Below are positions 36,499 to 40,763 of a stretch of DNA of 40,764 nt, in pieces (position 1 is the first letter of the stretch; each line of letters opens with the position of its first letter). Below the pieces are notes generated by a model, which was given only the letters and a program-made list of their open reading frames with translations, ran no database searches and had not been told where the DNA came from. The position numbers were made by a program, and so were the translations under genes. The stretch is from Candidatus Nanoarchaeia archaeon (lineage in GTDB: Bacteria > Patescibacteriota > Microgenomatia > Woykebacterales > RBG-16-39-9b), in the NCBI GenBank assembly GCA_036382695.1, contig DASVHF010000072.1, forward strand, positions 1-40,764, written 5' to 3'.

Positions 36499-37302
36499 TT
36501 AAGAAGCCTGCCTGTCCAATCGGAAAATTTTTGGCGAAAGCCATTCTTTAGGAGCATGAGGGTCTGCAAGATATCCTTGACGCTCTTGCTTCCTAAGCAC
36601 ACCTTTCTTAATCCTAGCACAAAATGCTGCTGCTTCGAATGTGGTTGGATCGGCTACAGAATTAAAGTCATCGGTAGCAGCACGCATACCGGCCAATAAA
36701 TAATCGATAGCGGCTACTGGCGGGCTAAGTTGGCTTTTTTCGACTAATTTAGCCACCTGGGCGCAGATACTATCAGCAAATTCGTTGACAAAATTTAATT
36801 TACCATAGAGCTGGTTGTCGGTACTTTTGTCTATGTTTATAATTTCCTTTTTTTCTAGAGATTCTCTTTCGTCCTGTTCAAGTTCTGTCAAAGACGCCAG
36901 ACCCAAAGTAATTATTAAATCTGTCTCGTACCCCCGGAAGGAGATTTTTATCTCATCTTCGCTAATTGCTTTGTTTCTTGGACTTATAATGAAATTAAAA
37001 TTTTCTCCCTCTAGATCATAGCTTACTTTTTCGATTCCATTCTTATGCCAATTGAAGGAAACTACAAGCTTTCTTAAGTCGACTCTGTCCTTTATTTTAA
37101 CGGGAGATGGGTCAAAATTTTCTGGCAAGTCTCCTTTTGCTACAACTTGAACATTTTTACCTAAAGCCCTCAAGATATTCTCCAAAAATAAAGCTGCTGC
37201 TAAAGTATCCACCTCTAGATTTTTGCCCGTCAGTATTAAGATATTCTTTGCTTGATTTATTAAATTTGCAAAGAAGCTAGAATTTTCTGCCTGTATTTGC
37301 AT
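36499..37302 (-). CDS. DHH-phosphoesterase-like (NrnA-like) protein with degenerate catalytic motifs
   Basis: NILILTGKNLEVDTLAAALFL aligns to the DHH motif I/II region (normally ..H..PDGDA.GS..) but lacks the His/Asp residues. At 267 aa it is shorter than NrnA. Confidence 0.45.
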   Translation of the reverse strand: MQIQAENSSFFANLINQAKNILILTGKNLEVDTLAAALFLENILRALGKNVQVVAKGDLPENFDPSPVKIKDRVDLRKLVVSFNWHKNGIEKVSYDLEGENFNFIISPRNKAISEDEIKISFRGYETDLIITLGLASLTELEQDERESLEKKEIINIDKSTDNQLYGKLNFVNEFADSICAQVAKLVEKSQLSPPVAAIDYLLAGMRAATDDFNSVADPTTFEAAAFCARIKKGVLRKQERQGYLADPHAPKEWLSPKIFRLDRQAS

Positions 37303-38973: not shown

Positions 38974-40059
38974 TCATTCCTTGCTTTTAGCTTTTTTGGT
39001 CTTTTTCTTTGTTTGTTTGCCGACAACTGTTTTTTTGGCCCCGAGTTTCTTTTCCGCTTTTGGTTTTTCAGCAGCTTCTTTACCCTCTTGTTTTTCTTTT
39101 AACTTTTGGCTTATCTCGAGTTTTTCTGCTCCCTTAATGTCAATTCTCCAGCCAGTTAATTTTGCTGCTAGTCGGACGTTTTGGCCATCCTTTCCTATCG
39201 CCAATGAGAGTTGGTCGTCAGGCACCTCTACATACGCAGTCTTTTCTTTTTCATCAGTGCGTACTTTATCTACTTTTGCTGGGGAAAGGGCAGCCGCCAC
39301 AAATTTAGCTGGCTCGTCGCTATAAGCAATAACATCTATCTTCTCCTTTCCAAGTTCAACAATTACTGCCTGCACCCTAACTCCTTTTTGTCCTACACAG
39401 CTTCCAACCGGATCTACTCCTGGTTGTCGAGAAGCCACTGCTACCTTACTTCGGTTGCCAGCTTCTCGGGCAATACCTTTAATCTCAACTATCCCGGAAC
39501 CGATTTCTGGCACTTCCAGCTTGAAAAGTCCTTCAACCAATCCTTTGTGTGCCCGGGAAACTACGATTTCTTGCCCACGATGGCCTTCACGAATACCAAT
39601 GATGTAAAATTTTAGCCGTTGGTTAAGCCGATATTCTTCACCAGCCATTTTCTCAGTTGCTGGCATGATACTCTCTGTCTTACCTAGATCTATGACAATG
39701 TTTGCACCTTCGATCCGCTGGATCATGCCGTTGACTATAGTACCAACTCTTTTCTCAAATTCAGAAAATATGGCACTTTTTTCAACTTCACGGATTCTTT
39801 GTAAGAGAACTTGCTTTGCTGTTTGGGCAGCAATACGACCAAATCCTGGTGGCGTTACATCTTTTTTATCTTTAAAAATTTTGGCTACTCCTGTATCTGG
39901 CTCGATCTCAACTTCAATATCCTCGGTTTCTCCACCGTAATCTTTTTTGTAGGCGGATTTTATTGCATCCTTGATGATCCCCAAGACATCATCGGGTTCT
40001 ACTCCACGTTCAGCCGCGGCCTGATTGAGAGCAGCTGCAAATTCTGTTCTTAATGCCAA
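38974..40059 (-). CDS. nusA: Transcription termination/antitermination factor NusA with a Lys-rich C-terminal tail and no AR1/AR2 repeats
   Basis: An S1 domain ([21 protein letters not shown]), KH1/KH2 ([24 protein letters not shown]), a TTG start at 40059, and the SD AAGGAGG at 40066-40072. Confidence 0.93.
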
Positions 40060-40077
40060 ATTAGCCTCCTTAAACCT

Positions 40078-40103
40078 AAAAAGTGGGATTTTAAGCCCAC
40101 TTT
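40078..40103 (-). terminator. Terminator-like hairpin in the nusA leader
   Basis: Minus sense reads AAAGUGGG-cuuaaaau-CCCACUUU followed by UUAGGUUUA. It lies between the promoter (40132-40160) and the SD. Confidence 0.4.
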
Positions 40104-40131: not shown

Positions 40132-40160
40132 ATAATAAACTATCATTTATTTTAGGTCAA
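40132..40160 (-). promoter_or_regulatory. Sigma70-like promoter for nusA-infB
   Basis: Minus strand reads TTGACC (40155-40160), a 17-nt spacer, then TATTAT (40132-40137). Confidence 0.5.
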
Positions 40161-40652
40161 GGTTTATTGAAAATATCGCGACCAGCAAATGTATATTGAC
40201 AAGCAAGCGAGAAAGTGGTTTAGTGTAGGTAAAGAAGCAAACGAGAGTACGATCCAACCCTGTTCACTCACCCGAACAGGACTAACATATGGTGGGTGCG
40301 GCATCTGGCTATTATGGGTATCCCTCCCACCCTGGGCGTAGTCAGACGTTGGTATACCCACCACCAGCACTCAATAATTTGATCCAGCTTTGTTGATCTG
40401 GGTCACCAACTGGCTGCAACAGCCGAAACTCTTGGCCGGTTGGTTAAACTTCGAGGGAGACAGTAACCGCATGCTGCCTCTCTAGCGCTCTTGGGTCTCA
40501 TCGCCGCACCCCCTGCGAGTAAGATGAAAGGAGGTAAGGTCACGGGCACACGTTGCTTCGACCCTCCCTCTGGACTCGAGAGCGCATGCCAACAGATGGG
40601 CACAATTGTGAGGGAATTTGATAATTCTCCGCAGTTGTGCCCCTTCTTCTTT
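40161..40652. ncRNA. Unassigned GC-rich, ORF-poor, helix-dense region; candidate structured RNA of unknown class and unresolved strand
   Basis: Hand count gives 32/60 and 36/60 G+C in lines 40441-40500 and 40501-40560, against visibly AT-richer flanks. Multiple nested complementary segments are present (details in findings). The only ORFs are two Cys/Pro/Arg-rich 66-68-aa frames. Confidence 0.35.
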
Positions 40653-40763
40653 TCAGCCCTCCAATTCTCTCAGTGCCTCTTTCTGCCTAGTAGAGAGGTG
40701 TTTGGGCGTAACTACTCTGACCCGCACGTATTGATCGCCGCGGGAAGAATCATGTTTGACTCC
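40653..40763 (-). CDS. C-terminal 36 codons of a DnaJ/CbpA-type co-chaperone (gene enters from the right edge)
   Basis: Too short for the ORF track. My translation is GVKHDSSRGDQYVRVRVVTPKHLSTRQKEALRELEG*. The GD.YV.V.V..P..L...QKE.L.EL pattern is the usual DnaJ C-terminal end. Confidence 0.55.
   Translation of the reverse strand, partial: GVKHDSSRGDQYVRVRVVTPKHLSTRQKEALRELEG

Follow-up and report, generated by a model that had tools for sequence, protein, structure and literature searches.

A putative multi-hairpin RNA gene convergent with dnaJ and opposite to nusA in Candidatus Woykebacteria

The stretch of DNA analysed in this work, hereafter the window, comprises the 40,764 nt of contig DASVHF010000072.1, which we assign to Candidatus Woykebacteria (Microgenomates/Patescibacteria, Candidate Phyla Radiation, CPR) by its NusA, 79-88% identical to those of metagenome-assembled genomes of this group. 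In the gap between a dnaJ-type gene and nusA, both encoded on the - strand, we identified on the + strand the site of a structured RNA of ~420 nt, which is very probably a genuine RNA gene and represents an RNA family not previously described. The best explanation overall, to which we assign a probability of about 0.5, is that of a separate, multi-hairpin regulatory RNA whose C-rich loops would pair with ribosome-binding sites. An initial annotation of this DNA, made from its letters, had proposed a large structured RNA of unknown class at 40161-40652, and strand-specific folding, a promoter, a terminator, covariation and the lack of an Rfam match bear this proposal out.

The gene is bracketed by transcription signals of its own (Table 1), from which we infer the start and the end of the transcript at 40231 and 40652. 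The promoter block (ATATATTGACAAGCAAGCnAGAAAGTGnTTTAGT) is nearly invariant in eight loci, namely the window and the comparison loci L001, L003, L004, L075, L130, L131 and L135, and it is better conserved than the RNA body; it was not listed by a simple promoter scan because its -10 element matches the consensus poorly, and its function is deduced from the conservation of the block. The terminator was likewise absent from the scan output, since its stem and loop exceed the limits of the scan; equivalent hairpins with differing stem sequences are found in L130, L135, L001 and L075 (stems GGGCAC.., GGACGC.., GGCGC.., GGGCGC..), and the tail is T-rich on the + strand only. Beyond it lies the stop codon of the dnaJ-type gene (40653-40655, C-terminus ...LRELEG*), already placed at 40653 by the initial annotation, so that dnaJ and the RNA gene are convergent. 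The + strand of 40225-40655 folds with a minimum free energy (MFE) of -171.6 kcal/mol (z = -5.64), a stability reached by none of 100 dinucleotide shuffles, versus z = -0.90 for the - strand. The transcribed strand is fixed independently by 101 G.U cells, which make the module formed by hairpins 1 and 2 95.1% paired on this strand and 82.6% paired on the other. The region is also identical at 100% (L127) and 99.8% (L126) in two independent assemblies. Thus, as read from the sequence alone, the locus combines a predicted promoter, a Rho-independent terminator and no coding capacity, a gene layout expected of trans-acting small RNAs.

The base composition also sets the region apart, with 51% G+C at 40161-40652 versus 42.3% for the entire window, and 49-58% in 200-nt windows across the RNA region versus ~35-45% in its flanks; for 40441-40560, where a rise to 53-60% had been counted by hand, we measured 56.7%. 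In the predicted fold, hairpins with C-rich loops follow one another as a chain instead of forming one compact ornate structure. Seven complementary pairs had been read from the letters at the outset, and all of them exist and take part in the + strand MFE fold, three with coordinates that are off by 1-10 nt. The pairs ggagg..ggtc (40530-40541) with gacc-ctcc (40560-40567), gcgctct (40485-40491) with agagcgc (40579-40585), and cctgttc/gaacagg (40259-40280) lie exactly where they had been placed, and the gggcacaa/ttgtgccc stem, given as roughly 40597-40640, is the terminator stem at 40598-40642. The segment aaagaag is found at 40231-40237 as described, but its partner cttcttt lies at 40646-40652 and not at 40639-40645; ccaac.ggc keeps its position (40406-40414), with gcc.gttgg displaced by one base to 40435-40443; and the ggtgggt/acccacc pair stands, with its strands at 40291-40297 (not 40301-40307) and, one base off, at 40356-40362. 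The multiple internal helices of that description are thus retained, and the case for its closed ends is weak: helix P1 displays a single compensatory change, AAGAAG/CUUCUU in the window versus AAGAGG/CCUCUU in L130.

Table 1. Coordinates of the RNA gene, its predicted structural elements and adjacent nusA features in the window.
Feature	Position	Strand	Description and basis
Promoter of RNA gene	40196-40224	+	-35 TTGACA 40196-40201; 14-nt spacer; TGg 40216-40218; -10 TTTAGT 40219-40224
Predicted non-coding transcript, ~420 nt	40231-40652	+	Promoter and terminator bracket; fold z; ends predicted
P1, 5' strand AAAGAAG	40231-40237	+	Pairs with CUUCUUU 40646-40652 in the terminator tail; MFE and centroid folds
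P2 hairpin, CCUGUUC-loop-GAACAGG	40259-40280	+	Predicted; in L130, L075, L003 (extended stem in L003); absent from L001, L135
Domain B, 74-nt rod	40290-40363	+	Base stem, middle stem and apical hairpin; model R2, covariation
Domain B C-rich apical loop UAUCCCUCCCAC	40319-40330	+	Consensus YAYCCCYCCCR in six lineages; mean unpaired probability 0.58
Single-stranded CCAGCACU	40364-40371	+	Right after Domain B; unpaired probability 0.72
Variable hairpin, GAUCCAG...CUGGGUC	40381-40404	+	Predicted; length and sequence differ between lineages
Helix C, CCAACUGGC paired with GCCGGUUGG, loop UGCAACAGCCGAAACUCUUG	40406-40443	+	Covariation
Hairpin 1, loop UAACCGCAUG with CCGCA motif	40453-40482	+	Part of model R1
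Hairpin 2, outer stem GCGCUCUUGGGUC / GACUCGAGAGCGC	40485-40585	+	Covariation
Near-invariant 19-mer GUCUCAUCGCCGCACCCCC	40495-40513	+	Apical part of hairpin 2; exact metagenome matches; synteny loci
Lineage-specific insertion in hairpin 2	40520-40572	+	Sub-hairpin GGAGG 40530-40534 / CCUCC 40563-40567
Intrinsic terminator	40598-40652	+	20-bp hairpin 40598-40642, then CUUCUUCUUU, abutting the dnaJ stop
nusA	38974-40059	-	ORF list
nusA promoter	40132-40160	-	Divergent, context rather than part of the RNA; TTGACC-17-TATTAT, 10 of 12 consensus positions; promoter scan; conserved

The helices are supported by covariation, which the initial annotation had proposed to look for among homologues; five other Woykebacteria lineages provided them, with compensatory changes in Domain B, helix C and hairpins 1 and 2. 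For Domain B, the covariance model R2 gave E = 6.7e-27 in the window (40285-40375) and E-values from 1e-14 to 1e-27 in the five other lineages. Among the six sequences 88.2% of the cells are paired, 7 of 19 pairs are altered on both sides, and the covariation score is 0.40, versus 0.24 +/- 0.04 in shuffled alignments (0 of 500) and at most 0.11 when the partners are slid. The apical loop of Domain B includes CCUCC, the anti-Shine-Dalgarno core, and the single-stranded CCAGCACU that follows the domain is conserved in the window, L130, L075, L001 and L003, with variants in L135 and L004, and is also found in L131, L138 and L139. The idea that Domain B forms a tRNA-like minihelix ending in NCCA was discarded, the register being ambiguous and a T-arm missing. 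The region of the variable hairpin carries ~100 extra nt in L003 and L135. Helix C is paired in all 60 cells and 7 of its 10 pairs vary, none being broken and many being G.U. Its loop and 3' strand align weakly to the sigma-70 promoter of the high-G+C small RNA genes described below, and an internal promoter of the extracytoplasmic function (ECF) type or of the sigma-70 type was considered here (TGCAAC/TGTAAC ... CGGTTGG); since the spacer is too long for a promoter and the segment is 100% paired with covariation, we read it as an RNA helix.

Hairpins 1 and 2, which both contain the CCGCA motif, were evaluated on 31 distinct sequences. In hairpin 1 each of the 8 stem pairs is altered at both positions, and the outer stem of hairpin 2 is 97.9% paired, with basal pairs that switch between A-U and G-C. 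For the module as a whole (22 pairs), 95.1% of 672 cells are paired, including the G.U cells mentioned above, and 65 cells are altered on both sides, versus 22.7 +/- 4.9 in shuffles (0 of 500); its covariation score is 0.383, versus 0.226 when shuffled and at most 0.107 when slid. The insertion in hairpin 2 is specific to the window and L135, both with GAAAGGAGG...CCUCC, and is absent from L130, L075, L001, L003 and all high-G+C copies.

Identically placed and oriented copies of this RNA were found in L130, L075 (= L128, L129), L001, L135 and L003 besides the window (= L126, L127), and in these six lineages it lies on the strand opposite to nusA. Identity among them is 72-86% in blocks separated by large indels; the window and L130, for instance, are 82% identical with intact helices. 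The gene order dnaK-dnaJ-gap-nusA-infB-(267 aa)-rpsO-pnp recurs in relatives, and the RNA is kept within one Woykebacteria subclade and is not universal. Model R2 gave no significant match in L131, L138 and L139, and at the syntenic site of L004 it reached E ~0.6-0.95. An inverted hairpin 2 (GGGGGACCGAUGAGAC), suspected by eye in L131 and L004, was rejected, as neither strand of these loci gave a match at E<=1 with model R1, which covers hairpins 1 and 2. Relatives also have tRNA genes in this dnaJ-nusA gap, 1-4 in number, encoded on the strand of the RNA and served by a promoter of their own (L001 1174-1558; L131 ~1700-2150; L004 9306-9380; intergenic in L138 and L139), each tRNA followed by a recurring AGAGAUCAAC spacer; in L138 and L139 the tRNAs come first in the gap. 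The 3' half of a tRNA (..GAUUCAACCUUGGGUCGGGAGCCA) is all that L075 keeps, and one L001 tRNA was assigned a 4-base anticodon (cgca) by ARAGORN.

The 3' part of the RNA is shared with a distant group of bacteria. An exact-pattern scan of metagenome contigs was made with GTCTCAYCGCCGCACCCCC, and the 19-mer GUCUCAUCGCCGCACCCCC occurs exactly on at least 120 of them; among the matches listed, contig G+C is 58-70%, L075 excepted. At one of these loci the neighbouring citrate synthase has its best named relatives in Dehalococcoidia/Chloroflexota (76-82% identity), for which reason we call the lineage Dehalococcoidia-like; judging from this gene, the high-G+C contigs probably belong to Dehalococcoidia. 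In ~100 high-G+C contigs the 19-mer occupies the apical portion of a hairpin that measures 47-62 nt, AGCGCUYUCGG-GUCUCAUCGCCGCACCCCC-GCGAGC-N5-9-GACUCGRGAGCGCU, in which a short inner helix, (C)AUCG(C) with a variable 3' partner, can be read and CGCACCCCC is looped out (9-12 nt). Model R1, built from 31 sequences of Woykebacteria and high-G+C copies, describes hairpin 1 (CCGCA loop) followed by hairpin 2, with the stem GCGCUYU..GGGUC/GACUC..RGAGCGC around the 19-mer. The window, itself one of the 31 sequences, matches it over the full model length (40449-40585, 56.8 bits, E = 6.3e-10); the other five Woykebacteria copies match as well, and so do 76 of 100 high-G+C loci (26-102 bits), always in the orientation of the motif. 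Model R2 found no match in the 100 high-G+C loci, and the window RNA is thus composite: its 5' half is specific to Woykebacteria and its 3' module is shared.

The G+C content of this module (57-64%, versus ~42% for the genome), its limitation to one subclade and the weak promoter alignment of helix C favour the horizontal transfer of a whole small RNA gene, and by these sequence features the module was probably acquired horizontally into an existing RNA locus. Patescibacteria/CPR and Chloroflexota are sister groups in some phylogenies; vertical descent of the module from a common CPR/Chloroflexota ancestor is the less likely origin.

Among 67 distinct high-G+C copies, a sigma-70-like motif precedes 25 and an ECF-like motif (GTAAC-N15-19-CGT) precedes 12, with 0 and 0 on the opposite strand, and at least 5 T within the 9 nt after the stem are found in 51 of the 67, versus 2 of 67 on the opposite strand. 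Copies of type 1 have a promoter followed by hairpin 1 and then by hairpin 2, which acts as terminator, and are flanked by an OmpR-type response regulator or a secreted protein on one side and a GAF histidine kinase on the other. This synteny was observed in L010, L011, L024, L028, L033, L122 and others, the kinase (~480 aa) being preceded by TGTAAC-N16-CGTCAT, an ECF-sigma-like promoter motif. Many high-G+C copies have no same-strand gene within 400 nt, which indicates stand-alone small RNAs, and one contig (L113) carries two copies; by these features, the high-G+C motif appears to be a multi-copy family of stand-alone small RNAs with one common loop. In copies of type 3 (L093, L120, L107, L113), the loop of the first hairpin, GGGACCCCCUCCCGCCC, resembles the apex of Domain B in Woykebacteria (L003: GGGCAUCCCCCUCCCGCCC); the Domain B model gave no match in these four copies.

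A concrete class of candidate targets was found in the high-G+C lineage. The reverse complement of the 19-mer, GGGGGUGCGGCG-AUG-AGAC, coincides with the Shine-Dalgarno (SD) sequence and AUG of nine giant open reading frames (ORFs) on nine further contigs, each site comprising the SD GGGGGUG, a 5-nt spacer and the start codon with exact 19-nt complementarity, and the duplex between the loop and such a site has an energy of -51.7 kcal/mol. The nine ORFs (L016, L021, L031, L045, L065, L069, L070, L095 and L110) span 275 to >2100 aa, are mutually diverged, and display signal-peptide-like N-termini (MRRLxIG...); three of the proteins were searched against Pfam, which gave no domain. Model R1 does not match these loci, which are therefore not small RNA genes. 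Some of the giant ORFs carry partial extra GGGGGUGCGGC copies in their 5' regions. An alternative partner, the 3' end of 16S rRNA (helix 45), offers by hand an 8-bp match (GCCGCACC with GGUGCGGC) to a generic 16S 3' sequence; since initiation regions match far better, over 19 nt, we rejected the rRNA as principal partner.

On this basis, the RNA would be a trans-acting antisense regulator with C-rich loops that imitate the anti-Shine-Dalgarno sequence, hairpin 2 in addition imitating a CAU that faces the start codon. By pairing with G-rich ribosome-binding sites (GGGGGUGCGGCG-AUG-AGAC), these loops would prevent the initiation of translation, so that the hairpin 2 RNA would repress translation from initiation regions of the GGGGGUGCGGCGAUGAGAC type. 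For the high-G+C lineage, antisense control of giant-gene initiation by the small RNA family is, from the complementarity, a plausible and the simplest account. For the window, the proposal follows from the homology of the module and from the second C-rich loop, with CCUCC, in Domain B; trans action, translational repression and targets in Woykebacteria are what we infer here, and we rate this mechanism a little below even odds.

Several observations weigh against the proposal. The invariance of the 19-mer across the metagenome matches is partly imposed by the search pattern, although loci found by synteny and not by the pattern retain it, with 1 change in L003 and 2 changes in L135. In the ensemble predicted for the window the CCCCC pentaloop of the 19-mer is open (1.0), and the other 14 nt have an unpaired probability of ~0.03. 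The complement of the 19-mer is absent, at up to 5 mismatches, from the 40.8-kb window and ~200 kb of Woykebacteria loci, where the best initiation-region duplex reaches -25.7 kcal/mol and falls within a Glu/Leu-dehydrogenase-type ORF. The putative link between small RNA and target relies on 9 of ~120 contigs and is drawn from one contig to another. Moreover, L004 and L131 keep the promoter but have a different RNA body, unrecognised by the models, with a terminator, another promoter and tRNA genes after it, and no RNA is present at this locus in L132, L134, L136, L137 and L140; the RNA must therefore be dispensable or replaceable.

Other functions were weighed against these data. An RNA that binds or sequesters a protein, or serves as a ribonucleoprotein scaffold, could present CCGCA, CGCACCCCC, CCCUCCC and CCAGCACU as protein sites, its partner being, for instance, a poly-C binder of the KH type, a ribosomal factor or a translation factor that is titrated or carried as by CsrB or 6S RNA. 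The repetition of short motifs in several loops (CCGCA in hairpins 1 and 2), a loop almost exact across two distant phyla, as a conserved partner would explain, the lack of a target in the Woykebacteria DNA examined and the position of the gene among nusA, infB, rpsO and pnp all suit this explanation; we nevertheless find it unlikely, because the exact reverse complement on the SD and AUG of nine giant ORFs would be left unexplained, no candidate partner gene is consistently adjacent, and several Woykebacteria do without the RNA. Somewhat less likely still is that the 19-mer works as a double-stranded DNA operator (in either orientation downstream of promoters, defining a regulon) or that hairpin 2 is a leader attenuator, in which case the window copy would do little by itself, as a passenger or relic of a horizontal transfer. 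Such a role agrees with the fact that the sequence occurs in either orientation and always has promoter-like motifs a short distance upstream, with genes within 50-100 nt in some high-G+C loci (purE, galK, winged-helix regulators, citrate synthase, an ATP-binding cassette transporter), with winged-helix and OmpR-type regulators as frequent neighbours, and with the donor-like G+C of the module. It does not account for stem pairs that covary, with 15% of the cells being G.U and valid on one strand only, for T-rich tails on one strand, for the many copies without a downstream gene or for helices kept intact in six diverged Woykebacteria lineages; in addition, the window element lies 265 nt inside the RNA gene, and it cannot be a leader because dnaJ is convergent and no gene is found downstream.

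The tRNA genes that lie downstream on the same strand of the same intergenic region in L001, L131, L004, L138 and L139, and the tRNA 3' half retained in L075, raise the improbable alternative that the RNA is the leader, or a processed spacer, within a tRNA transcription unit, with a role in precursor processing or stability and with the tRNAs lost in the window and L130. In L001 and L131, a terminator hairpin of its own ends the RNA and a separate promoter of the TTGACA-N17-TAAAAT type precedes the tRNAs, and the window and L130 lack any tRNA yet retain the RNA at 82% identity with intact helices. Furthermore, many CPR members live attached to host cells, and the RNA might mimic host regulation, Woykebacteria having captured a Chloroflexota seed module that acts on, or mimics the regulation of, giant surface-protein genes of the host. 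The donor-like G+C (~60% versus 42%), the limitation to one subclade and the shared samples are compatible with it; metagenome co-occurrence is weak evidence here and the transfer of RNA between cells is hypothetical, so that we regard this symbiont-host scenario as very improbable. The samples in question, Ga0214473, SDBT01/SDBV01 and Ga0247727, yielded both Woykebacteria nusA contigs (L130, L075, L140) and motif-bearing high-G+C contigs, a co-occurrence that may be trivial for soil and sediment.

A diverged member of a known RNA class that the models miss can be effectively excluded, be it a housekeeping RNA (RNase P RNA, tmRNA, 6S, the signal recognition particle (SRP) RNA) or a known ornate class (OLE, GOLLD, ROOL, HEARO, raiA). 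The size of ~420 nt, the strong conserved promoter and the tRNA neighbourhood would suit rnpB or ssrA, and CPR RNAs are often aberrant. However, a cmscan search of the whole window against Rfam 15 (4227 models, including HEARO, raiA, 6C, RsaE, the rimP leader and lysM-TM7) gave 0 matches at gathering thresholds, and at E<=10 the segment 40000-40764 gave four chance-level matches of at most 16 bits, versus thresholds of 61-100 bits; no family is thus assigned by the search that the initial annotation had called for. In L001-L004 Rfam returned tRNAs only (with no other family in L003 at a permissive threshold), none of 26 motif-bearing high-G+C loci matched even at E<=5, and L003 and six motif loci, like the window, remained without a match above chance level to any of the 4227 models at E<=10. 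ARAGORN found no tRNA or tmRNA in the window and no tmRNA in L001-L004 and L075. From these empty searches we conclude that the RNA is not RNase P RNA, tmRNA, 6S, SRP, OLE, GOLLD or ROOL. Direct reading agrees: no P4-type GGAAAGUCC...ACAGAA pair is readable for an RNase P RNA, the only GAAAGG of the window RNA lying in the lineage-specific insertion (40526-40534) that is missing in 4 of 6 lineages, and neither a T-arm with a CCA end nor a tag ORF is readable for a tmRNA. Besides, close relatives have no RNA or an unrelated body, unlike what is expected of an essential RNA. A mobile element of the repetitive extragenic palindromic or miniature inverted-repeat type was rejected as well, since promoter-like motifs and T-tails occur in one orientation only and the stems covary instead of being fixed. 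Searches for the 19-mer GUCUCAUCGCCGCACCCCC in viral contigs gave none, its 15-mer string appears in no paper of the searchable literature, and keyword searches gave nothing relevant.

The reading as a small-protein gene or as a pseudogene, for example a decayed rimP, is effectively refuted. ORFs within the dnaJ-nusA gap are limited to 68, 66 and 50 aa, in line with the initial annotation, which saw no credible ORF in 40161-40652; the three frames have no Pfam match at E<=1, no rimP or other coding signal was recovered from them, and they are not conserved, the MRP... frame ending after 6 codons in L130 on reading its sequence. The reverse strand of the 19-mer does resemble an SD followed by AUG, but the peptides from that AUG are wholly different among copies (MRPKSARE.., MRLEER*, MRPESAE.., MRLSERH*), these frames are interrupted in the nearest relatives, and conservation tracks base pairs and not codons. 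The absence of rimP from this position, also noticed at the outset, extends from the window to every related Woykebacteria locus.

When a regulatory RNA is assumed, the closest resemblance is with RNAIII of Staphylococcus aureus (514 nt), whose loops base-pair to the SD and start region in mRNAs that encode surface and secreted proteins, so preventing initiation. Both are long, separately transcribed hairpin chains with several C-rich apical loops that mimic the anti-SD sequence; however, there is no similarity in sequence or by covariance models, RNAIII encodes hld whereas the window RNA has neither an embedded peptide gene nor a quorum-sensing context, RNAIII belongs to Firmicutes and the present RNA to CPR and Chloroflexota, and the seed proposed here has 19 nt and would span SD, spacer and AUG. 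RsaE/RoxS (Bacillota) and 6C RNA (Actinomycetota, RF01066) also target G-rich ribosome-binding sites through conserved C-runs in loops and use the terminator hairpin as part of the functional RNA; in contrast, their Rfam models do not match, the loop described here is different and much longer, there are many copies per genome (two on L113), and in Woykebacteria it is embedded in a 420-nt RNA. The high-G+C copies, located behind ECF-type motifs (GTAAC-N16-CGT) or flanked by genes for a response regulator and a histidine kinase, recall the sigma-E-dependent MicA, RybB and MicL, and by their single common seed Qrr1-5; the complementary sites are initiation regions of giant secreted proteins, as for envelope small RNAs. 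By analogy only, their logic may be that of an envelope-stress or two-component output small RNA; there is no homology, and none of that regulatory context surrounds the window copy. With OLE, GOLLD, ROOL, HEARO and raiA the RNA has in common a length of >400 nt, a G+C content above that of the genome, many helices and, in some relatives, nearby tRNA genes, but it matches none of their covariance models, and it is a string of independent, modular and variable hairpins of narrow distribution where these classes have one conserved multi-junction fold.

To our knowledge, very few non-coding RNAs of CPR bacteria are known beyond rRNA, tRNA, RNase P RNA and tmRNA, and RNA regulation in their reduced genomes is essentially unexplored. 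The present locus adds a well-delimited, covariation-supported new RNA gene in Woykebacteria and leads to an RNA motif without previous annotation that abounds in Chloroflexota-like bacteria of soil and sediment and offers a concrete, testable target class; it also presents a regulatory RNA module common to two phyla, whether by transfer or by ancient descent. If the antisense mechanism holds, it would offer a handle on the control of the largest surface proteins in uncultured Dehalococcoidia-like bacteria and suggest what a CPR bacterium does with the same seed.

Further features were observed around the RNA gene. The nusA promoter, which the initial annotation had located correctly, and the RNA promoter form a divergent block (40132-40224) that is more conserved among Woykebacteria lineages than the RNA it drives and that persists in L004 and L131 despite their different RNA body. 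In the nusA leader, a terminator-like hairpin (AAAGUGGGCUUAAAAUCCCACUUU, followed by UUUAGG; 40080-40103, - strand) stands just upstream of the nusA ribosome-binding site, beside the SD at ~40068-40074; it is the sole terminator-like site listed by the scan, is kept in nearly all Woykebacteria loci, and may be a NusA-dependent autoregulatory attenuator. Between this hairpin and the nusA start, L130 (2890-3000), L131 and L135 have ~115 nt of extra conserved sequence with its own AAGGAG and a possible 21-codon ORF, a segment that the window lacks. The infB gene of the window is short (500 aa), and the infB-rpsO interval contains, where rbfA or truB often sit, a 267-aa ORF (36499-37302, - strand) whose relatives have no Pfam match or a weak DHH match. 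Directly upstream of dnaJ, small genes for PIN-domain, toxin-like proteins were found in L126 (1146-1809) and L132 (448-822).

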